Notes: generated by a model from the sequence alone, not told the origin. Numbered from the stretch's first letter, positions 41,964 to 62,939 are shown. The stretch is 64,000 bases of DNA from Pseudomonadota bacterium (GCA_040384685.1 JAZKIV010000036.1:44445-108444); one strand, 5' to 3'. Numbers and translations: made by a program.

Positions 41964-44513
<2,550 letters not shown>

Positions 44514-46313: not shown

Positions 46314-46805
46314 CTAGTTCAGCCGCTTGATCGACAGCAGCATCTCGATGCGGGCCACGGGCTGGTCGCCGAATTCCTCCGGCGCCGTCACCAGCACCTC
46401 GATCGGGGTTTCGATGCGTTGCCGCGTGCGCGCCGCCTCCTCGCACACGCGCGACAGTTCCTCGCCCTGGATGCAGGTGAAATGCGCGCGGCCACCCACG
46501 CGCTTGTAGAACTGCGCGGACGAGGTCTTCACGATCGGCGGCACGACGTGGCCGGTGGCGAACATGTAGCGGATCGGGAACACGCCGGCCACCAGGTCGG
46601 CCGCGATGCTGAAGGCGCCGATGAACATGGAGTCGTGCAGGTTGCGGGTGCGCCGCGACAGCGGCACGCTGACCACCACCTTTTGCGCCGACAGCTCCTC
46701 CAGGCGCGGCTGCACGTAGCGCATCATCGGCACCCGCCGGACCGCCAGGTGGAACATCGCCTTCGCTTGCAGGCTTTGGGGCAGCAGGCCGATCAGCTTG
46801 TTCAT
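46314..46805 (-). CDS. hotdog-fold thioesterase-like protein (DUF4442/YiiD-like)
   Basis: TRNLHDSMFIGA, FYKRVGG...F.C. Confidence 0.75.
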   Translation of the reverse strand: MNKLIGLLPQSLQAKAMFHLAVRRVPMMRYVQPRLEELSAQKVVVSVPLSRRTRNLHDSMFIGAFSIAADLVAGVFPIRYMFATGHVVPPIVKTSSAQFYKRVGGRAHFTCIQGEELSRVCEEAARTRQRIETPIEVLVTAPEEFGDQPVARIEMLLSIKRLN

Positions 46806-46809
46806 GGCG

Positions 46810-47340
46810 TCATCGCTCCATCGCGGCGCGGGTCAGGCGGTCGGCTTCGATCCAGGCGCTGATCGCGCCCGGGAACGCCGGCGAAGCGGGGTCGGAGCCG
46901 AGCGCGGCGCGTGTCTCGGTGCTGCTGACGATGCCGCTGCGCCCGATGATCGCGCCCTTCAGGTGGCCGGCCGCCATGGTCTTGCCGTCCTGCAGGAATT
47001 CGAAGCGGAAGTAGCTCCAGCGCTCGTCCCAGCAGGCCATGGTGGTGCGCAGCGTGTAGCGGCGAAACGGCTTCAGCGCATGGCGGAACGACACCATCGC
47101 GCCGCCGAGCATCGGCAGCCAGCCCTTGCGCCGGGCGATGCGGAAGAACCCGGCGCGGCCGAAGTACTCGACCACGATGAGGTCGGTGATGGTCAGGTAG
47201 CGGCCGTTGTTCATGTGGCCATTGACGTCGAGGTCGCCCGGCCACACGCGCATCGTCATCTCGATGGTGTCGCCCAGGCGGATCGGCGGTTTCAGCCGCA
47301 TCCCCAGCCAGGTGAGCAACAGGCGCAGGTAGAGGTTCAT
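46810..47340 (-). CDS. acyl-CoA thioesterase (4HBT-like)
   Basis: RVWPGDLDVNGHMNNGRYL; ATGA overlap with the ligase gene. Confidence 0.85.
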   Translation of the reverse strand: MNLYLRLLLTWLGMRLKPPIRLGDTIEMTMRVWPGDLDVNGHMNNGRYLTITDLIVVEYFGRAGFFRIARRKGWLPMLGGAMVSFRHALKPFRRYTLRTTMACWDERWSYFRFEFLQDGKTMAAGHLKGAIIGRSGIVSSTETRAALGSDPASPAFPGAISAWIEADRLTRAAMER

Positions 47341-48935
47341 GCGCGGACGTCCTTTTGCGCCATGCGCTGTGCGTCCTGCGCCCGCAGGGTCTGGCGCAGG
47401 ATCTTGCCCGCCGCGCTTTTCGGGATGGCGGCGCAGGCGACGACCTCGGCGAGCTGCTTGTAGTCCGCCAGGTGCTGCCCGGCCCAGGCCTGGATGCGCT
47501 CGGGCGCATGCGAGCCGTCGTCCAGCGTCCGCGTCACCACGTAGGCCACCGGCAGCTCGCCGGCGCGCTCGTCGGGCCGGCCGATGACGGCCGCGTCGAC
47601 CACCGCGGGATGCCCGGCCAGCAGGGCCTCGAGTTCGGCCGGGGCCACCTGGAAGCCCTTCACCTTGATCAGCTCCTTCAGGCGGCCGGTGATGGAGAGA
47701 TAGCCGTCCGCATCGAACACGCCCAGGTCGCCGGTGCGCACCCAGCCGTCGGCGGTGAGCGTTTCCTGTGTCGCCGCGGGCTGCCGCCAGTAGCCGGTGA
47801 AGGCCTGCGGGCCGCGGAACCACAGCTCCCCCGGCGTGCCCGGCGGCAGGTCCGCGCCACTGGCCGGATCGACCACGCGCGCCTGCGTCCCCGGCAGCAG
47901 GCAGCCGCTGGAGCCGGGCCGGACGCGCCGCGGCGGATTCACCGTGATGCAGCCCGACGACTCGGTCATCCCGAAGCCCTGGCCGACCTGGCACTCCAGG
48001 CGCCCGGCGACCTTGCGCTCCAGCGCCTCGCCCAGCGGCGCGGCGCCGCACCCCACCATTTCCAGCGACGACAGGTCGTGGGCATCGACCAGCGGATGCA
48101 GCGCCAGGAACTGCATCACCGGCGGCACGGTGCTCAGGTAGGACACGCGGTGGGTGGCGATGGCCTGGAGGAAGGACGCCGGCTCGAAGCGGCCCAGCGT
48201 GACCACCTTGGCGCCCGTGGCCAGCCCGCACAGGGTAACGATGGTGAAGCCGGTGATGTGGAACATCGGCAGGAAGGCCAGCATCACCGCGCCCGCCGGC
48301 GTCGGCCAGACCTGCGTGTACTGGCGGATGTTGGTGACCAGCGCGCGGTGGCTGAGCATCACGCCCTTGGGCATGCCGGTGGTGCCGGAGGAATACGGCA
48401 GTGCCGCCAGCGCATCCGGCGCCGCGCATCCGGCCGGCTCAGCGTCGTCGCAAGCAAGCAGGCCGGCGAAGCCGATGCAGCCCGCCGCGTCTCCCGTCAG
48501 CACGATGCGCACGTCGTCGATGCCCGCCACCGCTTCGCGCACGGTCGCCAGCAGCACAGGGGCGGTGAACACGAAGCGCGCGCCGCAGTCGCGCAGCTGC
48601 CGCGCCAGGTCGGCGGCGCCGTAGCCGGGGTTGGCGCCGCTCACCACACCGCCGGCCGCCATGGCGCCGAAGGCGGCGACCGGCCAGTCCGGCGAATTGG
48701 GGGCGAACATCAGCAGCACGTCGCCCGGCCGCAGGCCGCAGGCGGCCCAGCCCGCGGCGCAGCGGCCGATCGCGTGGTCCAGTTCGCCGTAAGTGAGCTG
48801 CACGCCGGTGTCGCCGTCCAGCAGCGCGACCTGGCCGGGACGCTGCCGCGCGCCCGCGCGGATGAAGTCCGGCAGGTTCAGCGGCGGCACCGCGGCGGCA
48901 AGGGCGGGTCCCTCGATCACGGTTCGCGCGCCCAT
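47337..48935 (-). CDS. 4-coumarate-CoA-ligase-like acyl/aryl-CoA ligase
   Basis: LPYSSGTTGMPKGV, GQGFGMTE, RTGDLG, KELIKVKGFQVAPAELE. Confidence 0.88.
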   Translation of the reverse strand: MGARTVIEGPALAAAVPPLNLPDFIRAGARQRPGQVALLDGDTGVQLTYGELDHAIGRCAAGWAACGLRPGDVLLMFAPNSPDWPVAAFGAMAAGGVVSGANPGYGAADLARQLRDCGARFVFTAPVLLATVREAVAGIDDVRIVLTGDAAGCIGFAGLLACDDAEPAGCAAPDALAALPYSSGTTGMPKGVMLSHRALVTNIRQYTQVWPTPAGAVMLAFLPMFHITGFTIVTLCGLATGAKVVTLGRFEPASFLQAIATHRVSYLSTVPPVMQFLALHPLVDAHDLSSLEMVGCGAAPLGEALERKVAGRLECQVGQGFGMTESSGCITVNPPRRVRPGSSGCLLPGTQARVVDPASGADLPPGTPGELWFRGPQAFTGYWRQPAATQETLTADGWVRTGDLGVFDADGYLSITGRLKELIKVKGFQVAPAELEALLAGHPAVVDAAVIGRPDERAGELPVAYVVTRTLDDGSHAPERIQAWAGQHLADYKQLAEVVACAAIPKSAAGKILRQTLRAQDAQRMAQKDVRA

Positions 48936-49435
48936 GGGCCGGACCCGGTGCGCCGCAGCACGGCAGCGCGCTTGCCGAACGGCGCCGGCGTGACCTTGAA
49001 CGCCAGGTTCCACAGCTCGATGCGCTCCACCTCGATCTTCACGAAGACCGCATCGGGATCGTCCGCGCCGGCGGGGAACACCGCGTTCCACGCCGGGTTC
49101 CAGCGGCTTGCCAGCTCCGAAGGATCGTCGAGCAGGACCGCGCGGCCGCCGAATGCCGCATAGGCGCTGTCCGGGTCGTGCTGGTAGCCGACGGTGACGC
49201 GGGCGTCGCGCCGGATCTCCGCCGCCTTGCGCGAGGCCTTGCTGGTGAGGAACCAGACCGTCCACGCGTCCTCGCCCGGCACGCCCGGGATCTGCGAGAC
49301 CACGCGCGCATGCGGCGCGCCGTCCTCGCCCACGGTCGCGATCCAGCAGTGCCTGGCCGCCAGCGCCGTGCTGCGCGCGGCCGCCAGCAGCTGTTCGACG
49401 TGCGCGGCCTCCTGGCCGTCATCCGCAGACATCAT
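48917..49435 (-). CDS. PNPOx-like / general stress protein 26 flavin-binding protein
   Basis: PHARVV, WFLTSKASRK, IEVERIELW. Confidence 0.8.
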   Translation of the reverse strand: MMSADDGQEAAHVEQLLAAARSTALAARHCWIATVGEDGAPHARVVSQIPGVPGEDAWTVWFLTSKASRKAAEIRRDARVTVGYQHDPDSAYAAFGGRAVLLDDPSELASRWNPAWNAVFPAGADDPDAVFVKIEVERIELWNLAFKVTPAPFGKRAAVLRRTGSGPWAREP

Positions 49436-49470
49436 CCCGCCTCCTTTGTGCACCCTGCCCGAGCATCGCC

Positions 49471-49689
49471 TTATTCGAGCACGGCGGCAAACTTGGCGAA
49501 GGCGTATTCGGTCGCCCGCTCCCTGGCTTGCGGGCCGACGAAGATCGCCACCAGCGCGTCGCCGGCGGCCTCCTGCTGCGTGGCCTCGACCTGCCAGGCG
49601 TCGGTGCGTGCCGCGGAGGCGGACACGCTGGCCGCGATCTCGATGCGCGACAACTCGGGCGCGGCGTTTTTCTGCTTTCCATGGGACAT
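49471..49689 (-). CDS. 72-aa hypothetical protein
   Basis: Short ORF filling the gap in a same-strand gene run; IFVGPQARERATEYA. Confidence 0.5.
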   Translation of the reverse strand: MSHGKQKNAAPELSRIEIAASVSASAARTDAWQVEATQQEAAGDALVAIFVGPQARERATEYAFAKFAAVLE

Positions 49690-49721
49690 GGCTGGAACCT
49701 TTCTTGCTGGATGGAATGTGC

Positions 49722-50846
49722 TCACGCGGCCTGGGGTGGCCCCCAGGACAGCACATGGGCCTGGTCGGGCGGAACGCGCCGCCCGAGAAGATCGAGGTAG
49801 GTGCGCTGCACGGCCGCCGGCCCGCTCAGGCGCACGATGTCGACGCAGTTCGGCACGGCCTGCGCCAGCTCGGCCCAGGCCGCGTCGCAGCGCGCCAGGA
49901 AGCGCCCGGCGCCCCACTCCTGCACCCGCTTGTGGCTTTGCGCCGGCGCGAAGAACAGCACCGGCTGCACGCCGGGCACGGCCTGCTCCGCGGCGGTCTT
50001 GTTCCAGTGCGTCAGGCCGACCCGGCAGCTGTAGCGCAACTGCTCGCCCAAATGGCGGTGCACGGCGCCGACCACCTCCGCGTTGCCGGCCATGTCGACG
50101 AACACCGCCGGCGCATCCGCGGGAATCGACGCGACGTCTTCGTACGCGATCGCCCCGTCGAAGAAGCCGGTGCGCCGCACGAAGCCGATGTTGGCCGCGG
50201 AGGTCAGCCCGATCACCTGCGGCCGGTCGGGCCGGCGCGACAGCAGGCAAGCGAGGCCAAGCGCCGTCTTGCTCGACGCGCTGGCGATGACCACCCGGCG
50301 GGCGCCGAAGAAGCCCTGGTCCGCCAGGAAATCGTCGAGCAGGAAGGCGGTGTTGAACAGCGGCTTGAACACGGCCTGCAGGTCTTCGGCGCGTGCATCG
50401 GCCCGCGCGCCCGGCGCCGTGTAGGCATAGCGGTTGTAGACCGCCGGCAGCTCACGGCGGTGCGGCGTGATCTCATCGACATGGCCGCCGGCCGCATCGC
50501 CGAATTCGCCCACGGCGCGGGTCGACATCGGGTGGTAGCCGAACAGGCGGCCGCCGGCTTCGATGTGCGGATGCCGCGACGCCAGCACGTCGGCGTAGCC
50601 CCACACCGGCACCCTGCCCCAGCCCGGCGGCGCGGGGAAGAACTTCCAGAAGCCCATGGCTTCGCCGAGCGCCGCGTAGGTGACGTTGTTGGCCGTCAGC
50701 CCGAAGCTGTCGATGCCCAGCAGCACCTGGCCGGGGCGCAGTTCCGCTGGTGCGGGCTCGGCAGGCGCGAACCTGCAGTCGCTCAGGTCGCGCCGGTTCA
50801 CCAGGAAGTCGAGCGGCCCCGGCCCAGGGTCCGGCGCCTGCGTCAC
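49722..50846 (-). CDS. DUF2855 family protein
   Basis: LTANNVTYA, VPVWG, SASSKTA, FFAP; GTGA overlap. Confidence 0.8.
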   Translation of the reverse strand: MTQAPDPGPGPLDFLVNRRDLSDCRFAPAEPAPAELRPGQVLLGIDSFGLTANNVTYAALGEAMGFWKFFPAPPGWGRVPVWGYADVLASRHPHIEAGGRLFGYHPMSTRAVGEFGDAAGGHVDEITPHRRELPAVYNRYAYTAPGARADARAEDLQAVFKPLFNTAFLLDDFLADQGFFGARRVVIASASSKTALGLACLLSRRPDRPQVIGLTSAANIGFVRRTGFFDGAIAYEDVASIPADAPAVFVDMAGNAEVVGAVHRHLGEQLRYSCRVGLTHWNKTAAEQAVPGVQPVLFFAPAQSHKRVQEWGAGRFLARCDAAWAELAQAVPNCVDIVRLSGPAAVQRTYLDLLGRRVPPDQAHVLSWGPPQAA

Positions 50847-52117
50847 GGCTGCTGCACCGGCCGGGCGCCGCTGGTGGACATGCCGAACGCGTGCCGCGTA
50901 TTGACCCACACGGCGCGCGCGATCGCGCCCGGCGCCATGAACTGCATCAGCGAACTGTTGCGGCTGCCGAAGGCCACGATGTGCGAAGCGCATGCCGGGT
51001 CGCGCGCGCCGGCCGAATTCATCAGCGTCTCGATGCCGTTGTAGCGGCGGCCCGACAGGTAGTCCTTCATCACGAACTCGTGGCCGCCCAGCCGCTTCTT
51101 GTGCTGCCCGGCGTACGCCTTCAGGGCGCGCGCCATCTCCAGCTTGCCCTCGAACGCCGGCCGCACGTTGTCGAACAGCCATTCGGCGGTCTGGAAGGCG
51201 AAGCCGCAGCCCACGCCCCACAGGGGGTCGGCGGTGAAGGACGCGTCGCCGATGAAGGCGATGCCCGCGTGCACCGGCGGGCGGGTGATCATCGGCATCT
51301 TCAGCATGCCCAGGAACGGCGAGACGCGGCGGCCGAGACGCGGCGACGGCGCGTCGGGAATGCCGTCGAAGTACTTCAGGAACTCCTCTTCGACATGGCC
51401 TTTCCACTGCGGCAGCTGGTCGTTGGTCGGCATCGCGCCGAGCATCACCAGCCCGTCGTCGGTGCGCAGCACCGACGCCCAGTTCGGGTTCAGGAAGTAG
51501 ATCTGCGCCGTGCTCTGCTTGGGCATGGGCATGTCGGCGTAGTAGGCCGAATAGGTGAAGCGCCCGTTGGCGTGCGTCTTGGACTTGGCGCCCGACAGCT
51601 GGGCCACCGCCGAATTCCGGCCATCCGCCGCGACCACCAGCCGCGCGCGGATGGTGCGGCCGCTGCCCTGCTGCGAGGAGGTGCGCACGCCCACGGCGCG
51701 GCCGTTCTCCATGACCAGTTCGCGCACCGACTGGCCGGGCATGAAGTCCACGCCGGCGGTCGCGGCCGCTTTGGCGCGCACCAGCGGGTCGAGCTTTTCG
51801 CGGCGCAGGTTGTAGCCGTAGGCCGGACGGTCGCGCGGTTCGCCAGGGTCGCGGATCCAGCCCCACGGCGTGGAGATCTCCAGCACCTGCCGGACCCCGC
51901 CGGCGGCTTCGATCGGCTCGACCAGGCCCAGCCGCTTCAGCGTCGGCGTGGCGCTGGACTGGATCAAGTGCGTGCAGATCTTCTTGTACGCGTCCGTGTC
52001 CGTCTCGCGCTCGATCAGCGCGACCTTCAGGCCTTGCCGGCCGAACAGGATCGCCGCGGCGCAGCCGGACAGGCTTGCGCCCACGATGGCGACGTCATAA
52101 GTGGGTTGCTCGGACAT
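50843..52117 (-). CDS. FAD-dependent monooxygenase/oxidoreductase
   Basis: DVAIVGASLSG, VAADGRNS, IGDASFTADPLWGVG; GGAGG-type RBS. Confidence 0.85.
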   Translation of the reverse strand: MSEQPTYDVAIVGASLSGCAAAILFGRQGLKVALIERETDTDAYKKICTHLIQSSATPTLKRLGLVEPIEAAGGVRQVLEISTPWGWIRDPGEPRDRPAYGYNLRREKLDPLVRAKAAATAGVDFMPGQSVRELVMENGRAVGVRTSSQQGSGRTIRARLVVAADGRNSAVAQLSGAKSKTHANGRFTYSAYYADMPMPKQSTAQIYFLNPNWASVLRTDDGLVMLGAMPTNDQLPQWKGHVEEEFLKYFDGIPDAPSPRLGRRVSPFLGMLKMPMITRPPVHAGIAFIGDASFTADPLWGVGCGFAFQTAEWLFDNVRPAFEGKLEMARALKAYAGQHKKRLGGHEFVMKDYLSGRRYNGIETLMNSAGARDPACASHIVAFGSRNSSLMQFMAPGAIARAVWVNTRHAFGMSTSGARPVQQP

Positions 52118-52131
52118 GGTTCCTCCTTGGA

Positions 52132-53355
52132 TCAATGGTCGACGGGTCGATCGGCAGCGGCGGCGGGGCGCCTTGCGGTGAACAGCGCGAACGCGCACAG
52201 AGCCGCGATCGCGCAGATGGCCAGGGTGATGGGCAGCGCCGCCGGCATCGGGAACAGCGCCAGCAGCGCGGTTCCGAAGGCGGCGCCGGTCAGCTGGCAA
52301 AAACCGTTCAGCGCGGCGGCCGCGCCGGCGTTGCGCGGAAACGGCTGCATCGCCGCGGCCGTCGCCACCGGGTTGATGATCCCGATGCCCGCCAGGTAGG
52401 GCAGCAGCGGCAGCACGAAATTGATCCAGCCGAGCGGCCGCGCCAGCACCAGCACGCACATGCCCAGGCCGCCGGCGGCCATCAGCCCGATGGCGACCAG
52501 GATCGCGCCGTTGGTGCCCAGGCGGCGGCGCAGCATGCCGGGCATGGTGCCGCCGGCGAACAGCGCGAACACCAGGCCCGCCGGCACCAGGCCGAACATG
52601 ACGGCGGACACGCCCAGGTGCTGCATGAAGATCGTCGGCGCGGCGGCGAAGAAGGCGAACAGCCCGGCAACGCCCAGGCTGGTGGCCAGCGTGGGCGCGA
52701 GGAATTCGGGCGTGGTGGCGATGTGCCGGTAGCTGCGCAGCAGGGCGCGCGGCGACAGGGGCACGGGCGCAAGGCCGCGGTCCGGAATGCAGGTCCACGC
52801 CAGCAGCGCGGCCGCCGCGCCGCAGGCGGCCAGCAGGGCGAAGTCGGCCCGCCAGCCCAGGGTGGCTTCGATCAGCCCGCCCAGCAGCGGCGAAAAGCCC
52901 GGCGCCGCGGTCATCAGCGTCAGGATCACGGCCAGCGCGTGGGCCAGCTCGGCGCCCTCGAACCAGTCGCGCGCGATGGCGCGCACCAGGGTCGATGCGG
53001 CGCATGCTCCGATGCCCTGCACCGCGCGCGCCGCCAGCAGGGCGTCCAGGCTGCTCGCCAGTGCGCAGGCGACGGCCGCCAGCGCGTACAGCACCAGCCC
53101 GGCCGTCAGCACGCGGCGGCGGCCCCAGGCGTCCGACAGCGGTCCCCAGGCCAGCTGCGACAGCGCGAAGGCGGCCAGGAACACCGTCAGGGTCGCGCGC
53201 GCGCCGCCGGCCGTGGTGCCGAACTCCTCCGCCAGGCGCGGCATGGACGGCAGGTAGAGATTGGTGGCCAGCATCGCCAGGGTGGCCAGCAGCGTGAGTA
53301 TTGCCAGCAGGCCTTTCGGCGCGCGCTGCTGCGGCGGGCGGGCCGTTGCGTTCAC
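52132..53355 (-). CDS. Bcr/CflA-family MFS exporter
   Basis: [28 protein letters not shown]...LGWR. Confidence 0.9.
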
Positions 53356-53684
53356 CGCGCGCTCCGCACCAGGTGCTGCAGCTTGCCCGGCACGCCGGCC
53401 CAGCGCTCGGCATCGGGCAAGGCCGGCTTGCTGTGCGCGATCGGCGGCCAGATCCTGGACAGCTCCGCATTCAGCTTGGCGCAATGCAGGTTCTCCGGCG
53501 TCAGGTCGCATTCGGACACGATCGCCTCGACCGGGCACTCGATCTCGCACAGGCCGCAGTCGACGCATTCGTCCGGGTCGATCGCCAGGAAGTTGGCGCC
53601 CTCGCGGAAGCAGTCGACCGGGCACACCGTGACGCAGGTGGTGTGCTTGCAGCCGATGCACATCTCGGTAACGACGTAGGTCAT
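53352..53684 (-). CDS. FdxA-type (7Fe/8Fe) ferredoxin
   Basis: [18 protein letters not shown] and [12 protein letters not shown]. Confidence 0.92.
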
Positions 53685-53700
53685 GCGGCGGCTCCCCGGG

Positions 53701-54444
53701 CTAGGCGGACAGGCCGCCGTCGATGACGAAGGTCTGGCCGGTCATGTAGGAAGCGTCGGCCGAGGCCAGGAACAGGCACAGCGCCGCCACCTCCCTGACG
53801 CTGCCGAAGCGGCGCAGCGGGATGCCCTTCTTGATCGCCGACTGCTGCGCCGGCGCGAAGCCGGCGACCATTTCGGTTTCGATGAAACCGGGCACGACCG
53901 CGTTCACCCGGACGTTGAAGCGCGACATCTCCAGCGCCAGCGACCTGGTCATCCCGATCAGCGCGGCCTTGCTGGCGCCGTAGTTGGTCTGGCCCGGGTT
54001 GCCCTTGATGCCGCTGACCGAGCTCATCTGCAGCACCACGCCGTCGCCGCGCTCGGCCATGGCGCGCACGAAATGCCGCGACACGAAGAAGGCCGAGTCG
54101 AGGTTGGTCGTCATGACGTCATGCCACTGCTCTCCGCTCATGCGCATCAGCGCCACGTCGCGGGTGATGCCGACGTTGTTGACGATGGCCGAGGGCGCGC
54201 CGCGCCTGGCCAGCAGGTCCTCGGCCAAGGCGCGCACGGCCTGCTCGTCGGCGCAGTCGCAGCGGAATCCTTCCGACTGGCTGCCGGCCTGCCGCAGCTG
54301 CGCCACCAGGGCATCCGCGGCCTGCGCCGACTGCCGGTAGGTGAAGCAGACCTCGTGGCCCGCCGCCGCGAAGGCTTCGACGACACCCTTGCCGATGCCG
54401 CGCGAGCCTCCGGTCACCAGCACCCAGGGTTTCAGTGCGTCCAT
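53701..54444 (-). CDS. 3-oxoacyl-ACP reductase (FabG-like SDR)
   Basis: [23 protein letters not shown]. Confidence 0.92.
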
Positions 54445-55955
54445 TGCCTGGCCTTCATCTCCGCATAGCCGAACGCCGCCTCGTAGCTCGGGCCGGCGAC
54501 CCAGGCGCTCAGGAAGTGCACGCCCTTCACCGGAAACTGCCGGTGGAACAGGTGGCCCGACATGTCGGTGCCGACCATCGCGCCGTAGCCGGCGCCGTCG
54601 GTGTTGTTGGTGAAGCGCTGGTAGGTGCGCGGCGACGACAGCTCGCAAAAGCGCACCCGCCCTTGCATGCGCGGGCGCGCCGCGTACAGCCTGCCCAGCA
54701 GCGCGTCCAGCGCGCGCCGCTTCTTGCCCTTGTAGCCCGCCGCGCGGCGCTCCGGCCAGTGCGACATGGCGTCCAGCACGTTCAGGCAGACCACCATGCC
54801 GGCCGAGGGGTCGAGCAGGTGGTAGTTGGTGACTTCCATCGGCGAGGCATGCCAGTACGCGGCCTCGCAGATCTGCTCGTCCTGCGGATGGGCCTGCGCC
54901 TCGCGCCGCGCCGCCAGCGCGGCATCGTCCGGCCCGGCGAACACCATGGTCTCGCAGCTCTCCAGGCCCAGCTCGGCGGGGCTGCAGTCGGTGGTGAGGT
55001 AGGCCGTGGTGGTGGCCCGGGACGGCTTGAGCGCCTGCAGCCTGGCCTTCACCGGCTCCAGTTCCTCGTGCGGCTCGAACAGGCGCGCCACCGCGTAGTG
55101 CGGCGAGGCGTTGACGTAGATGCGGTCCGACAGGAACCGGCCCTTGCTGGTGTCGACGCCGACCGCCGTGCCGGTGCCGTCGACCAGGATGCGCTTGACC
55201 GTGGTGCCGAGCATCACCTCGCCGCCGGTGTCGGTGACGCGGCGCGCCAGCGTGCTCGAAAGCATCTGCGACGCGCCTTCGACATAGGCGTTGCCCTTGC
55301 ACAGCGTGGCGTAGACCACGTGCAGGAAATACAGGTAGCTCAGGTCTTCCGGGAAGCCGCCGACGTAGATGCCGGTGGCGCCGATGATCTCGCGCAGGAA
55401 GCCGTCGTCGAAGCGTTCGGCCAGCGCGTCGCTGACGGTGAGGGTGCGCAGGTGCCGGTGCGCGTAGCGCAGCTCGGCGAAATCGACCTCGTAGTTGCCC
55501 TCCATCAGCTGGAACTGGTAGTAGCCGTGCTTGCCGTGGGTGTTGACCTCGCGGAAGAACGCCAGGATGGCCGCCTCCTCCCCCGGGAACCGCTCGACCA
55601 GCGTGCGCTCCACGCCGGCGCCGCTGTTCGGCAGCACGAAGCCGCCGTCCGGCAGCGCGGCCTCGAAGTAGCTGTGCGGCACCTTCAGCGTGAGCTCCTT
55701 GTCCAGCCCGAGCTCACCGAACATGCGGTGCATGTTGCCGCCGTCGCCCATGCCGCTCAGCTTGTGCAGGCTGCAGTCGAACACGGCCGGCGCCTTGGGC
55801 CGATGGAACACGCTCGCGTAGCCGCCCGGCACCGTGTGCTTGTCGACCACCAGGATCCGTGCCGACGGCGCGCGCGCCAGCGCGTGCGCCGCGAACGCCA
55901 GGCTGGTGATGCCGGCGCCGACACAGATCGCGTCCCATCCGCCCTCCTGGCTCAC
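54432..55955 (-). CDS. phytoene-desaturase-like FAD oxidoreductase
   Basis: DAICVGAG, DKHTVPGGY, SSPRTYQRFT...GAGYG; GTG start overlapping the upstream stop. Confidence 0.8.
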   Translation of the reverse strand: MSQEGGWDAICVGAGITSLAFAAHALARAPSARILVVDKHTVPGGYASVFHRPKAPAVFDCSLHKLSGMGDGGNMHRMFGELGLDKELTLKVPHSYFEAALPDGGFVLPNSGAGVERTLVERFPGEEAAILAFFREVNTHGKHGYYQFQLMEGNYEVDFAELRYAHRHLRTLTVSDALAERFDDGFLREIIGATGIYVGGFPEDLSYLYFLHVVYATLCKGNAYVEGASQMLSSTLARRVTDTGGEVMLGTTVKRILVDGTGTAVGVDTSKGRFLSDRIYVNASPHYAVARLFEPHEELEPVKARLQALKPSRATTTAYLTTDCSPAELGLESCETMVFAGPDDAALAARREAQAHPQDEQICEAAYWHASPMEVTNYHLLDPSAGMVVCLNVLDAMSHWPERRAAGYKGKKRRALDALLGRLYAARPRMQGRVRFCELSSPRTYQRFTNNTDGAGYGAMVGTDMSGHLFHRQFPVKGVHFLSAWVAGPSYEAAFGYAEMKARQWTH

Positions 55956-56833
55956 AGCACGCTCAGCTTGCGCAGCCAGCCGTACAGCGGCGCGAAGCGC
56001 TTGTCGTTGAGCGCCGTGTTGCTGGCCGAGCCGCGCACCTCGTCGATGCGCGCCTGGTCGTCCGCCGCCACCGGGAAGGCGAAGCTCACGTGCTGCGCGA
56101 TCTCGGGGTTGTAGGTGAACTGCGGAATCAGCGCCGCCATCAGCCCGCGCAGCAGGCCGCGCAGCTTGTCGCCCGCCGGCGGCGGTGCCGCTTCCAGATA
56201 CGACTCCGTCACCCAGCGGCCGAAAGCGATGTGGCGCGACTCGTCGACGTGGTGCTCGTAGAACATGGCGCGGGTCATCGGCTCGATGTCCTGCGACTGG
56301 GAGGCGTGCATCGCCGCGAGTTCGGCCATCCATTCGATGACCATCGTGGCGCTGATGCCGAACTCCGGCGGCATGGCGGGCAGCTGCACGGTCAGCAGCT
56401 CGTGCAGGTTGCCCGCCGGCGCGTAGAGCCCCAGGCCGGCCATCTGCATGTAGCGCTGGAACATCAGCGTGTGGACGATCTCTTCCTTGGAGAACAGCAT
56501 CAGGTACTCGTACACCGCGCCGGACATCGTGCCGGGATGCTTGTTGATGTAGCCCAGGTACAGCGGCGGAATGGTCTGTTCCAGCAGGATGAACATCGAG
56601 ACGTCGCGCGCGGTCTCCTGCCACAGCACCTCGTGGCGCTGCGCCTCGCTGAGCTGCTCCCAGTACGGCGTGCCCGCCAGCCAGCCCTGCTCGGCCGGCT
56701 TGGGCACAAGGGTCTTGTCCACGCCCTTGCTCCAGGACAGGACGGTGGCAACGTCCATCGGGCGTTCGTGCGAGCTGGCGATCAGCCGCGCCACGCCGGC
56801 CCGGCTGCTGTCGTTCAAGGGGACGGTCTGCAT
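55952..56833 (-). CDS. AurF-type ferritin-like diiron oxygenase
   Basis: LLEQ...KEEIVH and MAE...HHVDESRH, including the HxxxExxH extra-His motif. Confidence 0.82.
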   Translation of the reverse strand: MQTVPLNDSSRAGVARLIASSHERPMDVATVLSWSKGVDKTLVPKPAEQGWLAGTPYWEQLSEAQRHEVLWQETARDVSMFILLEQTIPPLYLGYINKHPGTMSGAVYEYLMLFSKEEIVHTLMFQRYMQMAGLGLYAPAGNLHELLTVQLPAMPPEFGISATMVIEWMAELAAMHASQSQDIEPMTRAMFYEHHVDESRHIAFGRWVTESYLEAAPPPAGDKLRGLLRGLMAALIPQFTYNPEIAQHVSFAFPVAADDQARIDEVRGSASNTALNDKRFAPLYGWLRKLSVL

Positions 56834-56875
56834 CTGGTTTCCTTCGGATCGGGTGGATGGATGGGCGGCGGCTGC

Positions 56876-57166
56876 CTACTGCGGCGCCGCCGCGCCGGCC
56901 ACGGCCACGGCCGCGGACACGGCACCGGCCTCGCCGGCGTGGTCCTCGATGTACTGGCACAGGTCGCCCAGCGTCTTGATCTTTCCGGACACGAACAGGT
57001 CGGCGTCGACGGTGACGCCGAAGTTCTTCTTGATGCCGACCTGGATCTCGACGTAGTCCAGGCTGTCCAGTTCGACGTCCGCCAGGGCCAGGCCCGGGAC
57101 GAGAAGCGCTTCGTCGATGTCCTTGAGTTCGAGGACCGCGTCGCGGAGAAAATCGGCTGCATTCAT
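56876..57166 (-). CDS. discrete acyl carrier protein
   Basis: ELDSLDYVEI, acidic, 96 aa; GGAG RBS. Confidence 0.9.
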   Translation of the reverse strand: MNAADFLRDAVLELKDIDEALLVPGLALADVELDSLDYVEIQVGIKKNFGVTVDADLFVSGKIKTLGDLCQYIEDHAGEAGAVSAAVAVAGAAAPQ

Positions 57167-57993
57167 TGGAGGCTCCCTGGGTTGCGTGGTGGCTGCTGTG
57201 TTTCCGGTCTGGCGAGCAGGCCGATCTCGATGCGCATGACCAGGTCCTGCCCATGGACGATCGGCAACGAAACGGACCCGAGCACCTTGTCCGGGTCGGC
57301 GATGATGTCGGGCGCCGCCATCGCGTACGACAGCTGCCGCGGCGAGAACGGCAGCGGCCCCGGCGTGCGCAGCGCCTGCGTGTCGATGAACACCGTGTGG
57401 CTGACCTGCACGAACACCGCGCGCTCCGGCGCGGCGCCCATGGCGCCCGGGAATTCCTGCCGCACCTTCAGCGCGATGGCATCCAGCTTGGTGCGGATGA
57501 AGTCGGCGAAGACGATCGCGTCGAGCACGATCCAGCCTTCCTGCACGGTGGGATAGCTTTGCAGGAAGCGCTCGGCGTCGCCTTCGGCGAGCGGCGAGAA
57601 GCGCAGCTGGTCCGCGGCGTGCGCGGCGAGCCAGCCGCCCTGCTCCGGCGCCGGCGCGTAGCCGCCGCGCAGCCGTTCCTCCTGGCCTTCGCGCGCATTC
57701 AGCCGGAAGCCCAGGCCCGAGGTCCGCGACGCCTGCAGCGTCAGCAGGCTGGACGACCCGTGCGGAATGGGCTTGCGGAACACGCCGTGGTACTTCATCC
57801 AGCGGCTCGCAGCGGCACCCGTGCCGTCGGTCAGCGCCGCCTTGATCGGCAGCGAGGCCAGCATGCCGTGCACCACCAGGCCGTCGAGGCCGGCACTCCT
57901 GGCCTTGTGCAGGTCGAAGTGGATGGGGTTGTAGTCGCCGGAAAACTGCGCCCAGGCGGACACCTCGGGCAGGCCGAACGCGAGGTCGGTCAT
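57163..57993 (-). CDS. MaoC-like hotdog dehydratase
   Basis: FSGDYNPIH...VVHGM hydratase motif. Confidence 0.8.
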   Translation of the reverse strand: MTDLAFGLPEVSAWAQFSGDYNPIHFDLHKARSAGLDGLVVHGMLASLPIKAALTDGTGAAASRWMKYHGVFRKPIPHGSSSLLTLQASRTSGLGFRLNAREGQEERLRGGYAPAPEQGGWLAAHAADQLRFSPLAEGDAERFLQSYPTVQEGWIVLDAIVFADFIRTKLDAIALKVRQEFPGAMGAAPERAVFVQVSHTVFIDTQALRTPGPLPFSPRQLSYAMAAPDIIADPDKVLGSVSLPIVHGQDLVMRIEIGLLARPETQQPPRNPGSLQ

Positions 57994-59243
57994 GCCTGCG
58001 CCCGCTCGATCACCAGGGCGCAGTTCGCGCCGCCGAAGCCGAAGCTCAGGTTCATGACCGTATCGGCACTCTCCAGCCGGCCATGCTGGTTCGGCGTGTA
58101 GTCGAGGTCGCAGGCGGGGTCGGGTTCGTCCAGGTGGATGGTGGCCGGCACGATTCCCGTCTCCAGCGTCTTGAGGCAGAAGATGGCTTCCAGAGAACCC
58201 GCCGCGCCGATCAGGTGGCCGGTGTAGGACTTGGTGCTCGACATCGGGATGGCATAGGCAGCATCCCCCAGCGCGGCCTTCAGCGCGTTGGTTTCGTTGA
58301 CGTCGTTCAGCGGCGTCGAGGTGCCGTGGACGTTGATGTAGTCAAGCTGGTTCGGGCGGCGGCCGGCACCGGCCAGCGCGCCCTGGATGGTGCGCACGCG
58401 CGCCTGCAGGTCCTCGGCCGGCGCCGTCATGTCGTGGGCGTCCGAGTAGTTCGCGTAGCCGGTGATCTCGCCCAGGATGCGCGCTCCGCGCGCCACCGCG
58501 TGGTCCCACTCCTCCAGGCACAGGACGGCCGCGCCCTCGGACAGCACGAAGCCGCTGCGGCGCCGGCTGAACGGGCAGCAGGCCAGGCGCACGTCGTCCT
58601 GTTCCTTGCTCAGCGCCTGCATGATGTCGATGGACCAGACGTTGAACTGCTCCTTCAGCGACTCGCTGCCGCCGGCGAGCATGACCTTGGCGCGCCCGGA
58701 CTTGATGACTTCGTATGCATCGCCGATGGCCATCGACCCGGTGGCGCATGCCGCCACCGGCGTGTTCTGGTAGCCTCGAATGTCCCAATGCAGGGACACC
58801 GCCGCTGTGGCGACACTGCTCATCGACATCAGTGTCGAAAATGAGGACGCCAGGCCCGACTGGCGATAGTCGTTGTTATTGTGATTGACCGCGTCGACCC
58901 CACCCCAGCCGGTTCCGATGATGGCGCCGGCATCGAACGCCTGCACCGCGCGGCGCAGGCCGTCGCCCGAGCCGAACGCCATCACAATCGCCTCACGCGA
59001 CGCCAGCAGGGCGTAGCGTGCGAATTCAGGGAGCATCTTCAGGATCGACTTGGGGAAATCGGCGTAGCGCTTGCGGTCCGCGGGGACGAAGCCGAAGAAG
59101 CGTGCCTTGATGCTGGGGTCGGCGAACTCGTGCCTGCGGTACCCGGCGCGGCGCTCGAGAACGCCTTCCCAGATGGCCGGGACGTTGTCGCCGAGGCCGC
59201 AGATCGCCCCATAGCCTGTGACAGCGACGCGATGACTACGCAT
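57990..59243 (-). CDS. discrete beta-ketoacyl-ACP synthase (FabF/KAS II-like)
   Basis: AACATG, HGTST, KSYTGHLIGAAG, SFGFGG; Cys-His-His triad intact. Confidence 0.93.
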   Translation of the reverse strand: MRSHRVAVTGYGAICGLGDNVPAIWEGVLERRAGYRRHEFADPSIKARFFGFVPADRKRYADFPKSILKMLPEFARYALLASREAIVMAFGSGDGLRRAVQAFDAGAIIGTGWGGVDAVNHNNNDYRQSGLASSFSTLMSMSSVATAAVSLHWDIRGYQNTPVAACATGSMAIGDAYEVIKSGRAKVMLAGGSESLKEQFNVWSIDIMQALSKEQDDVRLACCPFSRRRSGFVLSEGAAVLCLEEWDHAVARGARILGEITGYANYSDAHDMTAPAEDLQARVRTIQGALAGAGRRPNQLDYINVHGTSTPLNDVNETNALKAALGDAAYAIPMSSTKSYTGHLIGAAGSLEAIFCLKTLETGIVPATIHLDEPDPACDLDYTPNQHGRLESADTVMNLSFGFGGANCALVIERAQA

Positions 59244-59497
59244 GATCCACCCTGATCTCTTTTTTATGCCGACTCGGACCGGTGCCCCGCCTGAGGGGGG
59301 AAGACCGGACGCAACTGCCTACTGCATTTCCGCGCGATGGCACACCGCCATCGACCCCTTCCGCCAGCCCACGAAAGCCTGCCTGCCGACATGAGCACCT
59401 TGCCAGGCGCATCCGGCGCATTCGCGTCTGCTTATCTTTCCACGAGAAAGATTAACGCCATGGTCGACCAATATCTTTCCATTGTCAAGATCACCAC

Positions 59498-60127
59498 ATG
59501 AAAACGTCTGTATCCGCGAAATCGGCAGCGAAGAAGCCGGCCAGGCCGGCCGCTCCCTACCATCACGGCAACCTGCGCGAGGCCTTGCTGGCGGCGGCGG
59601 ACACCGTGCTCACGGAACGCGGCGCGCACGGCATCACGCTGCGCGAAGTGGCCAAGGCGGCCGGGGTGTCGCATGCCGCCCCGTACCACCATTTCTCCAG
59701 CCTGGAGGACCTGCTGGCGGCGGTGGCCGAGCGCGAATTCATGGCGCTGGCGGCCGTGCTGGAGCGTGCCGCGGCAGCGGGCACCGCGCGCGAGAAATTC
59801 CTGGCCATCGCCGACGCCTACGTGCGCTTCGCGCGCAGCCGGCCCGCGCAGTACCGCCTGATGTTCGGCCCGCTGATGGCGCACAAGCACGACTACCCGG
59901 GCATGCGGGCGGCCGGCGAACGGGCCTTCGGCGTCGTGCTGGCCGCGGCCAACGCGCACGACCCGAAGAACGGGCCCGAGCTGGCGCTGTGCGGCTGGAG
60001 CCTGGCGCACGGCCTGAGCAACCTGATGATCGACGGCGCCATCGACAACCTGTCGACCCGGGTGCAAAGCCCCGATCGGCTGCCGCGCCGCCTGACCTCC
60101 TGGCTGCTGGCCGCGAAAGGCATCTGA
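59498..60127 (+). CDS. TetR-family regulator (TetR_C WHG-like)
   Basis: YHHGNLR, ITLREVAKAAGVSHAAPYHHF, WSLAHG. Confidence 0.92.
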   Translation: MKTSVSAKSAAKKPARPAAPYHHGNLREALLAAADTVLTERGAHGITLREVAKAAGVSHAAPYHHFSSLEDLLAAVAEREFMALAAVLERAAAAGTAREKFLAIADAYVRFARSRPAQYRLMFGPLMAHKHDYPGMRAAGERAFGVVLAAANAHDPKNGPELALCGWSLAHGLSNLMIDGAIDNLSTRVQSPDRLPRRLTSWLLAAKGI

Positions 60128-60181: not shown

Positions 60182-61369
60182 ATGGAGCCGAGACAGGGGG
60201 ATGGCATGGCGAAGACAGGCATGGACCCGTTGGTTGCTGCGGCAGCTTTCGACCCGGCATTGCAGGCCTCACCGGACACGCTGCGCGTGCTCGCGCGCAA
60301 GCGCATCCATCCGCACCGATTGCCGCCTGACCATCCGGCGGTCTCGCTGACCACACCCAGGAACGGCACCAACGCCGCGCGCGAGGCGCTGTTCGCCGCC
60401 GCCGCCGAAGGCCGGCCCATCATCCTCACCAATGTGCGCGTGCCGGTGGCCGGCGAACGCGAACTGGGCCTGCAGGGCGCCCTGCTGAAGGCCATTGCCG
60501 CGGGCTTCAAGCGCGGCGAGAAAGCCAAGGCGCAGACCGGCCCGAACGGCACGCGCCGCCGGCTCGCCATCGCCGAATTGCTGCGCCGCTGGCAGAGCGG
60601 GCGGCACATCGTGAGCATCACCGACCTGCACGTGCGCGGTACCTCGCTGGAACGCGACATCGACACCGACGAACTTTCCGGCTTCAACCTGCTGCCGCTC
60701 GGTTCCGAGGACATGCGGCGCCAGGAAATGATGACACTGGTGGTGAGCTCGCGCGGCAACGTCACCGACTCGCATTCGGACGACCCGGACGGCAGCAACC
60801 ACTGCTTCGTCGGCCGCAAGCTGTGGCTGGCCTGGGAGACTTTCGAGGGACAGCGCGCCGGCCTGGAAGACTGCTCGCGCGACGCGATCCACCAGCGCGC
60901 GCACTTCGACCTGGCGACCTTCGCCGCGCTGCGCAGCGCCAAGTGGTGGACCGTCGGCCCCGGCGAAACCCTGTTCCTGCCCGGCCGGCTGTCGCACCGC
61001 GTGGTCACGCTGGAGCGCTACGTCGGCATCGGCAGCTTCTATTGCACGCCGGCCTCCTGCCTGGAGAACCTGAGCCGCTGGTACCAGCACGGCGCGCTGT
61101 GGGAACTGGACGACCCCGAGGGCGAGAACGCCGGCCTGGTGGACGAGATCACCCTGGCGCTCGCGCACAAGCTGCAGCGCCTGGCGCAGCAGGCGCCGCG
61201 CACGCAGCAGCAGTGGGGCATGGACTTCCTCGGCGAAGGCCTGCAGTCCTGGCAGCGCCGCTGGCCGCAGGCGCGGCGGCAGCGCTTGATGGCGCAGCAC
61301 CCGCCGTTCGCGGGGCTGGTGAGCGGCGTGGAGCACTTGGCGGGTGCGGTGCCGCAGCGCCGCCCTTAG
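60182..61369 (+). CDS. JmjC/cupin-like Fe(II)/2OG oxygenase
   Basis: TDSHSD (HxD), GRKLW, LFLPGRLSHRV. Start 60182 or 60206. Confidence 0.7.
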   Translation: MEPRQGDGMAKTGMDPLVAAAAFDPALQASPDTLRVLARKRIHPHRLPPDHPAVSLTTPRNGTNAAREALFAAAAEGRPIILTNVRVPVAGERELGLQGALLKAIAAGFKRGEKAKAQTGPNGTRRRLAIAELLRRWQSGRHIVSITDLHVRGTSLERDIDTDELSGFNLLPLGSEDMRRQEMMTLVVSSRGNVTDSHSDDPDGSNHCFVGRKLWLAWETFEGQRAGLEDCSRDAIHQRAHFDLATFAALRSAKWWTVGPGETLFLPGRLSHRVVTLERYVGIGSFYCTPASCLENLSRWYQHGALWELDDPEGENAGLVDEITLALAHKLQRLAQQAPRTQQQWGMDFLGEGLQSWQRRWPQARRQRLMAQHPPFAGLVSGVEHLAGAVPQRRP

Positions 61370-62361
61370 GCGTCGCGCAGGTACTGGGCGATCTGCTGCT
61401 CGGTGATGTTGCTGCCGCACAGCACCGTGGCCACGCGCTTGCCGGCGAAGCGCGCGCGGTGCGCGACGATGGCCGCGACGCCCACCGCGCCGGCCGGCTC
61501 GATCAGCAGGCCGGCATGCCGGTGCACCAGGCGCATGGCCTCGACGATGTGCGTGTCGTCGACCAGCAGCACGTCGTCGACGATGCCGCGCATGTCGTCC
61601 ACGGCTTCCGGAATCGGCACGCGCACGGCGATGCCGTCGGCGATGGTGTGCGCGGCGTCGGTCTGCACCAGCTTGCCGTCCCGCCACGACTTTTCCATCG
61701 CGTCGGCGCCGGTGGCCGACACGCCGAGCACCCGCGTGGCCGGCGACGCCGCCTTGAACCAGCGGGCGATGCCGTTCAGCATGGCGCCGTTGCCCAGCGG
61801 CACGCTGATGGCGTCGAAGGCGTCGCCGCGCGCCAGCAGCTCCATGGCCATGGTGCCGTGCCCTTCGCTGATCTCGGCATCCAGCCCGTCTTCCACCATC
61901 CAGCCGCCGATCTCCTCGGCATAGGCCTTGGCTGCGTCCTTGGCGGCGTCGAAATCCTCGCCGACCTGGCGCACCTCCGCGCCGAAGCCGCGCATGCGCG
62001 CCACCTTCAGCGGGTTGGCATGCAGCGAGGCGTAGACCACGATCGGCAGGCCCTGCGCGCGGCAGGCATAGGCCATCGCCTGGCCCCAGTTGCCGGCGCT
62101 GGCGCAGACGATGGCGCGCTTGTCGCCGCGCCGCACCATCTCGCTGAGGAAGAAGCTGGCGCCACGGCCCTTGAAACTGCGGATCGGGTTGGTGAACTCC
62201 AGTTTGAGCGTCAGCGCGCAGCCGAGTGCTTCGCTCAGCGGTTCGCAGTCGTACTGCGGCGAGTTGAGGAACTCGGGTGGAATGACACCCGCGCTGCGGG
62301 CGATGTTGGCGAGCGACAGGCGGTGGCCGCCTTCGGCGAGATCGGGAGTCGGATTCGTCAT
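61366..62361 (-). CDS. threonine/serine dehydratase family PLP enzyme
   Basis: SFKGRGA, ASAGNWG, PLGNG, EPAGAVG, LCGSN. Confidence 0.9.
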   Translation of the reverse strand: MTNPTPDLAEGGHRLSLANIARSAGVIPPEFLNSPQYDCEPLSEALGCALTLKLEFTNPIRSFKGRGASFFLSEMVRRGDKRAIVCASAGNWGQAMAYACRAQGLPIVVYASLHANPLKVARMRGFGAEVRQVGEDFDAAKDAAKAYAEEIGGWMVEDGLDAEISEGHGTMAMELLARGDAFDAISVPLGNGAMLNGIARWFKAASPATRVLGVSATGADAMEKSWRDGKLVQTDAAHTIADGIAVRVPIPEAVDDMRGIVDDVLLVDDTHIVEAMRLVHRHAGLLIEPAGAVGVAAIVAHRARFAGKRVATVLCGSNITEQQIAQYLRDA

Positions 62362-62458
62362 GCCTGCAGTTTGCCGTCAACCGCGTGCGTGAAAACCGCT
62401 TTTTCGGCTAGGCTCGTGCGGCCAAGCCGCATCGCGACCCATTTCGACCGTCACCAAC

Positions 62459-62938: not shown

Positions 62939-62939
62939 C

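Follow-up and report, generated by a model that had tools for sequence, protein, structure and literature searches.

A TetR-Linked Ketosynthase/Acyl Carrier Protein Operon with an AurF-Like Diiron Protein Combines a Widespread Seven-Gene Core with Lineage-Specific Additions

The Operon and Its Boundaries

The window, the whole 64,000-nt stretch of DNA analysed here, comes from an uncultured Burkholderiales bacterium of a watershed metagenome. From 46314 to 59243, its minus strand carries 15 intact genes, including those for a ketosynthase (KS), a discrete acyl carrier protein (ACP) and a ferritin-like diiron protein distantly related to AurF. The 15 genes are one compact biosynthetic operon, probably under TetR control. 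The operon consists of a widespread seven-gene core plus eight lineage-specific genes and is not one evolutionary unit. Neither a description of the gene set nor an assigned product was found in the open-access literature, in agreement with the original prediction, made from the DNA alone, that the gene order differs from those of known aryl polyene, ladderane, polyyne and aromatic type II polyketide clusters.

The G+C content of the window is about 70%, and lists of open reading frames (ORFs) are full of spurious frames as a result. The genes were resolved by a frame plot of third-position G+C content (GC3), ORF calls and inspection of start codons, and the same genes were called independently on an identical Logan contig. 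Families were assigned by Pfam and NCBIfam searches of the window proteins. The features are as follows.

57990–59243, minus strand: KS, 417 aa, FabF-like beta-ketoacyl-ACP synthase
57163–57993, minus strand: MaoC dehydratase, 276 aa, MaoC-type (R)-hydratase/dehydratase
56876–57166, minus strand: ACP, 96 aa, discrete
55952–56833, minus strand: AurF-like diiron protein, 293 aa, ferritin-like, distant member of the AurF family
54432–55955, minus strand: CrtI-like flavoprotein, 507 aa, CrtI/amine-oxidase-like FAD protein
53701–54444, minus strand: FabG, 247 aa, 3-oxoacyl-ACP reductase type
53352–53684, minus strand: FdxA ferredoxin, 110 aa, 7Fe type
52132–53355, minus strand: Bcr/CflA MFS efflux transporter, 407 aa
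50843–52117, minus strand: FAD_binding_3 flavoprotein, 424 aa, geranylgeranyl (GG)-reductase/UbiH-like; alternative TTG start at 52135
49722–50846, minus strand: DUF2855 protein, 374 aa, fold like that of medium-chain dehydrogenase/reductase (MDR) double-bond reductases
49471–49689, minus strand: 72-aa ORF, conserved, no family match
48917–49435, minus strand: PNPOx-like flavin-binding protein, 172 aa
47337–48935, minus strand: 4-coumarate-CoA ligase (4CL)-like acyl/aryl-CoA ligase, 532 aa; alternative GTG start at 48920
46810–47340, minus strand: 4HBT_2 hotdog thioesterase, 176 aa, PF13279
46314–46805, minus strand: DUF4442 hotdog-fold protein, 163 aa, PF14539; last gene of the operon
59498–60127, plus strand: TetR-family regulator, 209 aa, TetR_N and TetR_C_33 domains; divergent
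59244–59497: intergenic region between KS and TetR, 254 nt, candidate promoter and operator

This layout bears out the original prediction of 15 same-strand genes, eight of whose junctions overlap and which are nowhere more than 42 nt apart. The overlaps number eight or nine, since MFS/FAD is counted or not depending on the start codon chosen. Overlaps of 4 nt are found at KS/MaoC, MaoC/ACP, AurF/CrtI, Fdx/MFS, FAD/DUF2855 and ligase/thioesterase; that is, the MaoC gene shares stop/start codon overlaps with both the KS and ACP genes. The CrtI/FabG and PNPOx/ligase genes overlap as well. The gaps measure 42 nt (ACP/AurF), 35, 32, 16 and 4 nt. An alternative thioesterase frame, the ORF at 46802–47509, was ruled out by its low, non-coding GC3; the true frame is the one listed. 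A scan found no convincing internal terminator, with counts within about 2 standard deviations of those in shuffled sequence, and Rfam and tRNA scans of the window gave no match.

The divergent TetR gene had also been predicted, and its product carries TetR_N. The spacer between it and the KS gene contains two putative elements, a palindrome read from the sequence, ATCTTTC-N5-GAAAGAT, at 59434–59452, and a repeated word, the second copy of which, ATCTTTCCA, lies at 59473–59481. An inverted repeat was also detected in this spacer. At the downstream end, a 128-nt gap follows the DUF4442 gene. The genes past this gap, encoding GAF-GGDEF, PaiB-like, TadA-hydrolase fusion and LD-carboxypeptidase proteins, look unrelated.

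A Widespread Core and Its Companions

For comparison, 77 loci were fetched from one-genome-per-species GTDB contigs, and all 16 window proteins were mapped onto them. The conserved core that a comparison of this kind had been expected to define consists of seven genes, namely KS, MaoC, ACP, AurF-like, CrtI-like, FabG and FdxA, found in the same order and on the same strand in about 35 loci. The core is patchy, being present in about 35 of 185,579 species genomes, among Beta-, Gamma- and Alphaproteobacteria. Its hosts include Massilia, Zoogloeaceae, Pseudoalteromonas, seven Pseudomonas species, Lysobacter, Stenotrophomonas, Chromobacterium, Paraburkholderia and Burkholderia stabilis, together with bee-gut Acetobacteraceae and one Hyphomicrobiales metagenome-assembled genome (MAG). 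KS identity across core loci is 58–84%. The eight distal genes, from MFS to DUF4442, are absent from about 90% of core loci. Therefore, the 15 genes that had been put forward as a single system resolve into a core shared by about 35 species and eight lineage-specific add-ons.

The arrangement in the window is nevertheless not due to chance, because the same 15 genes and TetR occur in the same order elsewhere. An unrelated metagenome contig, L082, has all 15 genes and the divergent TetR in identical order, with amino acid identities of 64–84%; its TetR, in the same divergent position, is 69% identical, and its DUF4442 protein is 70% identical. A Burkholderiaceae MAG contig, L002, has 14 of the 15 genes at 53–81% identity. 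Membership of the last five genes, about which the original prediction was hesitant, is settled by their synteny in L082 and L002. In the more distant locus L083, the core is followed by the MFS, FAD protein, DUF2855 and small-ORF genes and then by an RND pump. L082 continues at 14716–21116 with genes that the window does not have, encoding a membrane FA_desaturase, another ACP, a methyltransferase of CMAS-like type, two P450s, a FAAL-type ligase and a further two 4HBT thioesterases; this extension again suggests lipid chemistry.

Other lineages add different genes. The Chromobacterium cluster is the core plus a small DUF3995 membrane protein only. Pseudomonas and two Burkholderiales-like contigs add an alpha/beta hydrolase and two more amine-oxidase-like flavoproteins; three CrtI-like paralogues are present in the Pseudomonas and L085/L086 versions. 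A 150-aa ORF of the Pseudomonas cluster was considered as a DUF3995 protein, which was not supported. Likewise, a GyrB gene beside the Pseudomonas cluster was considered as a resistance gene; it was found at only two Pseudomonas-type loci and is probably a housekeeping copy. AurF and ACP entries of Collimonas are three accession numbers apart and thus are not adjacent as in the window.

Genes for a LuxI acyl-homoserine lactone (AHL) synthase and a LuxR receptor flank the core in Pseudomonas loci L011, L014–L016, L018–L020, L022 and L054 and in the Burkholderiales-like L085, a LuxR gene flanks it in L084, and a GerE-family regulator gene does so in L086. The LuxI/LuxR flanks suggest quorum-sensing control of the core; more speculatively, the AHL synthase might draw on the acyl-ACP of the cluster. 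Because of the patchy distribution and the flanking LuxI/LuxR genes or efflux pumps, the core points to specialised metabolism.

A second clade of AurF-like proteins, 43–46% identical, sits in a different conserved operon, counted at 17 loci. This operon is seen among L031–L048 and L053 (for example, L043 7739–13541), which come from Oxalobacteraceae, Pseudomonas MAGs, Burkholderia alba and Paludibacterium. The genes run HxlR regulator, AMP-ligase, AurF-like, enoyl-CoA hydratase, 4HBT_2 thioesterase and amine-oxidase-like flavoprotein, and the operon looks like a CoA-based counterpart of the ACP-based core. The flavoproteins of the two cluster types were considered as orthologues, which was ruled out because BLASTP gave no significant similarity between them. 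The window's 4HBT_2 thioesterase is 56–69% identical to that of the second-clade operon, and in L085 the core has a ligase gene and a 4HBT_2 thioesterase gene as neighbours. Since the ligase and thioesterase are found together in both settings, the pair is a recurrent companion of this diiron family.

A more distant arrangement occurs in Bacteroidetes. In Chryseobacterium sp. NFX27 (L063 4453–19611) and in L064–L077, a 27%-identical AurF-like gene is paired with a CrtI-like gene, and the clusters also contain two ketoacyl synthase III (KAS III) genes, a KS with a truncated KS-like protein resembling a chain-length factor (CLF), FabG, a FabA-like dehydratase, a thioesterase, a ligase and a PabB-like chorismate-binding enzyme. 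These clusters may make an aminobenzoate-primed type II polyketide.

The Diiron Protein

The diiron protein matches the AurF family, PF11583, at E 4.6e-21. Its AlphaFold (AF2) model has a pLDDT of 94, and the nearest folds are CmlI and AurF, at TM ~0.6 and 17% identity, with the R2-like ligand-binding oxidases (R2lox) close behind. A sequence-profile search of the PDB with the protein recovered neither AurF nor CmlI at E<1. It is predicted to be a true ferritin-like diiron oxygenase of the AurF superfamily, on an outlying branch. The AurF-type oxygenase of the original prediction is, to this extent, present; N-oxygenation should not be assumed, because the resemblance to AurF and CmlI is distant.

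Residues E85, E118xxH121, E167, H194 and E198xxH201 are invariant in 15 homologues. Ligand roles were assigned by motif spacing against the AurF numbering in PMC13061610. By this spacing, E85, E118, H121, E167, E198 and H201 would occupy the six canonical ligand positions and H194 an additional one. A seventh His ligand has been described as characteristic of N-oxygenases (PMC13061610).

The relatives of the diiron protein form 148 clusters at E<=1e-10 in a collection of 5.8 billion proteins. An exhaustive profile search of 1.84 billion representative proteins delimits a subfamily of only 27 at E<=1e-30, sharply set apart from the rest of PF11583. A tblastn search of PLSDB plasmids with the diiron protein gave no match.

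The gene has fixed neighbours, as follows: the ACP gene upstream, the flavoprotein gene downstream and a ferredoxin gene within the operon, with or without a reductase gene. In about 30 loci, the ACP, diiron and FdxA genes share one operon. These neighbours favour a thioester-bound substrate and a ferredoxin-driven cycle for the diiron enzyme. Soluble acyl-ACP desaturases, the classical ferredoxin-dependent enzymes, work on acyl-ACP. Ferritin-like diiron oxygenases have recently given unexpected chemistry, namely acyl-ACP halogenation, pimelate formation and diazo formation. Among ferritin-like diiron enzymes, BioE acts on acyl-ACP or acyl-CoA (PMC12704756) and CylC on acyl thioesters (PMC8406957; PMC12101540).

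Elongation Enzymes

The KS has the Pfam Ketoacyl-synt N and C domains and is the only KS-family protein in 46314–59243. Against the fabF model TIGR03150 it scores 381 bits, under the cut-off of 494, and its closest PDB structures are FabF enzymes (E 4e-85). The catalytic residues are intact: Cys in AACATG, His in HGTSTP and His in GHLIGAAG. The MaoC protein (PF01575) has the hydratase motif GDxNPxH, as GDYNPIH, at residues 19–25 in its N-terminal half, with weak matches to HadB and a fatty acid synthase (FAS) dehydratase. The ACP has a PP-binding domain with the serine motif DSL (ELDSLDYV). FabG matches adh_short_C2 (E 4e-63), scores over the cut-off for the FabG model NF009466 and has an intact S...YxxxK triad.

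Among the 15 operon proteins, Pfam and NCBIfam searches found no KS/CLF pair, KAS III or acyltransferase (AT) and no match to the FabI/K/L/V enoyl-ACP reductase or malonyl transacylase families. The relative L084 carries an Acyl_transf_1 gene nearby. The original prediction of a single KS with no CLF, KAS III or AT holds in this respect; its further claim that an enoyl reductase (ER) is lacking is doubtful given the MDR fold of the DUF2855 protein.

Redox, Tailoring and Release Proteins

The CrtI-like protein has NAD_binding_8 (E 1e-10) and DAO domains. It scores 54 bits against crtI_fam, for which the cut-off is 238, and matches to CrtD and CrtISO are also under cut-off. Its only PDB match is CrtI, 4dgk, at E 1.5e-3 over residues 11–315. 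In nearly all core loci, its gene directly follows that of the diiron protein. There is precedent for such a protein in UfaD of furan fatty acid synthesis, a CrtI-like enzyme that desaturates fatty acyl chains (PMC7380195).

The ferredoxin contains Fer4 and DUF3470 and scores 140 bits against NF045490 (FdxA_Protbact), above the cut-off of 135. Three relatives have a separate ferredoxin-NADP reductase (FNR)-type gene: in L084 this gene adjoins that of the ferredoxin, in L085 it is close by, and in L086 it lies upstream of the KS gene. The CrtI-like protein was considered as the ferredoxin reductase and ruled out, since these relatives have a separate one. Added to the core, an FNR would complete an electron chain from NAD(P)H to the diiron center.

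The MFS protein scores 235 bits against TIGR00710 (Bcr/CflA), above the cut-off of 201, and is conserved in L002, L082 and L083. The FAD_binding_3 protein is 69–83% identical in the same three loci. Its top NCBIfam match is the geranylgeranyl reductase family (1.7e-23), with UbiH next, all below cut-off. Pfam and NCBIfam supported all the family calls of the original prediction, with the qualification that this protein, called an FAD monooxygenase, scores best as geranylgeranyl-reductase-like.

The DUF2855 protein matches PF11017 at E 6.5e-99, in a very large family with more than 5,400 matches that elsewhere occurs in unrelated contexts. Its AF2 model (pLDDT 90) gives Foldseek matches, at E 1e-12 to 1e-15 and TM 0.53–0.71, to PA1648, PTGR1, plant double-bond and alkenal reductases, CurA, LovC and the CurK ER. 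The protein is a candidate for the "missing" ER. The PNPOx-like protein has PNPOx_N and Pyrid_ox_like matches and weakly matches the F420-type PPOX family TIGR03618. Because of the resemblances of the GG-reductase-like, DUF2855 and PNPOx-like proteins, the tailoring layer looks reductive as much as oxidative. The "several oxidations" of the original prediction were overstated, because DUF2855 and the FAD protein look reductase-like and some of the tailoring is more likely reductive.

The 72-aa ORF has no family match in Pfam or NCBIfam. Its homologues, at the same position in L002, L082 and L083, keep the C-terminal motif VAxFxGPxAxxRAxEYAxAKFxAVL. The ligase has AMP-binding and AMP-binding_C domains; its best PDB matches are plant 4-coumarate-CoA ligases (E 3e-113), and its best NCBIfam matches are fatty-acid-CoA ligase subfamilies, below cut-off. 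Ligase priming had been proposed as the logic of the pathway, which does not hold in general because most core clusters have no ligase.

RNA-Seq Coverage of the Core in Chromobacterium

For a cultured Chromobacterium strain, the core is covered in full by contigs of RNA-seq assemblies. It is spanned by one contig of 6.9–12 kb in each of three runs, and in a low-depth run tiled contigs bridge the MaoC/ACP/AurF and AurF/CrtI junctions. The contigs are consistent with a polycistronic transcript and are not proof of one, as DNA carry-over is possible.

Comparison with Known Systems

The operon shares with type II FAS a discrete KS with Cys-His-His, a FabG, a dehydratase and a small ACP, and its KS is nearest to FabF. 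It differs in that the dehydratase is of MaoC type rather than FabZ/FabA, FabI/K/V, FabD and FabH are lacking, the KS falls below the fabF equivalog cut-off, and the genes are embedded with those for the diiron, CrtI-like and ferredoxin proteins.

Aryl polyene, flexirubin and ishigamide systems likewise use a discrete KS, ketoreductase (KR), dehydratase (DH) and ACP with no obvious ER, and the window operon has a ligase and hotdog thioesterases. An ishigamide-type KS, 6smo, from a highly reducing type II polyketide synthase (PKS), is among the PDB matches of the window KS. Unlike the aryl polyene and highly reducing type II PKS clusters, however, the window operon has just one ACP and one KS, which is without a CLF-like partner, and it lacks KAS III, a LolA/MMPL export set and acyltransferases. 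Judged by the defining KS/CLF pair, it is not an aromatic or aryl-polyene type II PKS. We know of no diiron and ferredoxin pair in aryl polyene or highly reducing type II PKS clusters.

With AurF and CmlI, the diiron protein shares the Pfam family, the fold and, by spacing, the six carboxylate/His ligands and the seventh His. It differs in sequence and overall structure (17% identity, TM ~0.6), its gene is tied to ACP and ferredoxin genes, and most of the clusters have no arylamine supply. With the diiron enzymes that act on acyl thioesters (acyl-ACP desaturase, CylC and BioE), it shares a four-helix-bundle diiron protein, and its gene lies beside ACP and ferredoxin genes; this likeness is one of gene context, with no sequence-level relationship demonstrated.

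Polycyclic tetramate macrolactam clusters carry CrtI-like oxidoreductases. The operon has in common with these and with UfaD a phytoene-desaturase-like flavoprotein in a lipid or polyketide pathway, the homology of the window protein being at family level only. Finally, the polyyne clusters (cepacin, caryoynencin and protegencin) resemble the operon in being fatty-acid-derived and in having a ligase, an ACP, a thioesterase and oxygen-dependent desaturation. The window operon differs in lacking a membrane FA_desaturase, rubredoxin and FAAL, although FAAL and FA_desaturase genes are in the L082 extension. Judged by its want of membrane desaturases and a FAAL, it is not a polyyne cluster. To our knowledge, polyyne clusters have no KS, KR or DH.

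A Proposed Pathway and Its Alternatives

The cluster would work like a type II FAS or a highly reducing type II PKS with oxygen-dependent tailoring. It belongs to a conserved family of orphan clusters marked by an enzyme from a rare branch of the diiron oxygenases. Such a design is familiar in outline, and the "system" amounts to a widely distributed core with lineage additions, not a unique 15-gene invention. On balance we favor, as slightly better than an even bet, a TetR-controlled operon of two layers that makes an exported, modified fatty acid or reduced polyketide.

The observations are those of gene content, synteny with relatives, intact catalytic motifs, folds predicted by modelling, and RNA-seq contig coverage of the core in a relative; from these we infer each chemical step, the substrates and the product, as follows. 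KS, FabG and MaoC would extend an acyl chain on the operon's own ACP. Malonyl loading and phosphopantetheinylation would be provided in trans by housekeeping enzymes, some relatives bringing their own. FdxA would pass electrons to the diiron enzyme, which is proposed to desaturate or oxygenate the ACP-tethered chain, and the CrtI-like flavoenzyme may then further dehydrogenate or isomerise it. In the lineage of the window, the GG-reductase-like, DUF2855, PNPOx-like and 72-aa proteins likely tailor the chain or adjust its oxidation state. The 4CL-like ligase may prime the pathway with an acid or re-activate one as a thioester. The two hotdog thioesterases would release the product, the Bcr/CflA MFS pump would export it, and TetR would repress the operon until a ligand appears.

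Several points weigh against this pathway. The starter unit is left unspecified, and the acyl chain may not even be the substrate of the CrtI-like protein. H194 matches the seventh His of the N-oxygenases in spacing, which leaves C-H chemistry short of proof. Most core clusters do not have the distal genes, whose role could be in resistance, salvage or an unrelated pathway. RNA-seq contigs can hold DNA carry-over, and no RNA run was found to contain the window.

If the two-layer pathway is correct, the operon represents a compact family of orphan clusters, for which Chromobacterium, Pseudomonas, Massilia, Stenotrophomonas and Paraburkholderia offer cultured hosts. A very small, isolated diiron branch wired to an ACP and a ferredoxin would be a promising source of new C-H or C-C chemistry, and the repeated LuxI/LuxR linkage suggests a product that acts between cells. 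The window variant gives the large DUF2855 family a testable ene/enoyl reductase role. All this makes the operon a lead and does not amount to the demonstration of a new system.

A bolder proposal, which we regard as possible yet doubtful, is that the ACP, diiron, CrtI-like and ferredoxin proteins constitute a new enzymatic module for undescribed O2-dependent carrier-bound chemistry, for instance a cascade of desaturations, an oxidative cyclisation or the cleavage of a C-C bond, leading to a new class of lipid-derived signals or antibiotics, often under quorum-sensing control, across the Proteobacteria. The window would then hold a reductively tailored, exported variant.

The core might instead lie close to primary metabolism, making a special membrane fatty acid or cleaving or oxidising an acyl-ACP to a building block, rather than a secreted secondary metabolite, with the distal genes serving salvage or detoxification. 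The nearness of the KS and FabG to housekeeping FabF and FabG would suit this role, as would the minimal clusters, which add just one small membrane protein, and the coverage of the core by RNA-seq contigs from ordinary Chromobacterium runs. BioE, which forms pimelate, is a ferritin-like diiron enzyme able to cleave acyl-ACP or acyl-CoA. We nonetheless consider a primary role unlikely: the core occurs very patchily, it is flanked by LuxI/LuxR or LuxR genes in Pseudomonas and in Burkholderiales-like metagenome contigs, efflux pumps adjoin the cluster, and the tailoring sets differ by lineage, with no link to bio, lip or pls genes.

Distinctly unlikely, in our estimate, is an aureothin-like pathway, in which the diiron protein is an arylamine N-oxygenase (for example, converting p-aminobenzoate to p-nitrobenzoate or the hydroxylamine), the ligase activates an aromatic acid, and the KS, KR and DH extend a nitro- or N-oxy-aryl polyketide. 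The Pfam match to AurF, the top structural matches to CmlI and AurF and the invariant H194, at a position typical of N-oxygenases (PMC13061610), are what such an enzyme would be expected to show. The ligase most resembles plant 4-coumarate-CoA ligases, and the distant Chryseobacterium cluster joins AurF-like and CrtI-like genes to a KS/CLF pair and a PabB-like chorismate enzyme. Yet the identity to AurF and CmlI is 17%, the PDB profile search misses both, and the diiron subfamily stands sharply separate from the rest of PF11583. Most core clusters are without a ligase, a chorismate enzyme or an aminotransferase, and no arylamine-supplying gene is in the operon; the diiron gene is set instead between ACP and flavoprotein genes, with its own ferredoxin in the operon.

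Least probable is the chance juxtaposition of two unrelated units, the seven-gene core and an independent acid-activation, reduction and efflux operon (e.g., for handling xenobiotics or fatty acids): about 90% of core loci are without the distal genes, DUF2855 is a huge generic family of unrelated contexts, and MFS pumps and TetR regulators are commonly paired for efflux, but start/stop overlaps run through Fdx/MFS and the whole operon with no convincing terminator, the order is identical in L082 and L002 (53–84% identity) and partly so in L083, TetR diverges from the KS gene and not from the MFS gene, thioesterase homologues track AurF-like genes elsewhere, and a ligase and 4HBT_2 thioesterase accompany the core in L085.

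Other Features of the Window

The left part of the window contains a second biosynthetic locus. Two giant ORFs (2147 and 3832 aa) on the plus strand at 64–18052 encode a trans-AT-type modular PKS that runs off the left end of the window. The PKS has repeated KS-DH-KR-ACP units and RhiE-like KS-MAT linkers, with no AT domain, and is followed by an AMP-binding protein at 18142–20076. It is treated as a separate cluster, about 28 kb from the operon, with transport and housekeeping genes between.

On the minus strand at 42875–44284, beyond the downstream end of the operon, a 469-aa ORF fuses a TadA/MafB19-like deaminase to an alpha/beta-hydrolase domain. At 60287–62938, beside the TetR gene, are genes for a 360-aa protein with a weak Cupin_8 match only, a PALP-family pyridoxal phosphate enzyme and an AsnC regulator. 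The segment from 62001 to 64000 has a G+C content of 0.56, against about 0.70 elsewhere in the window.

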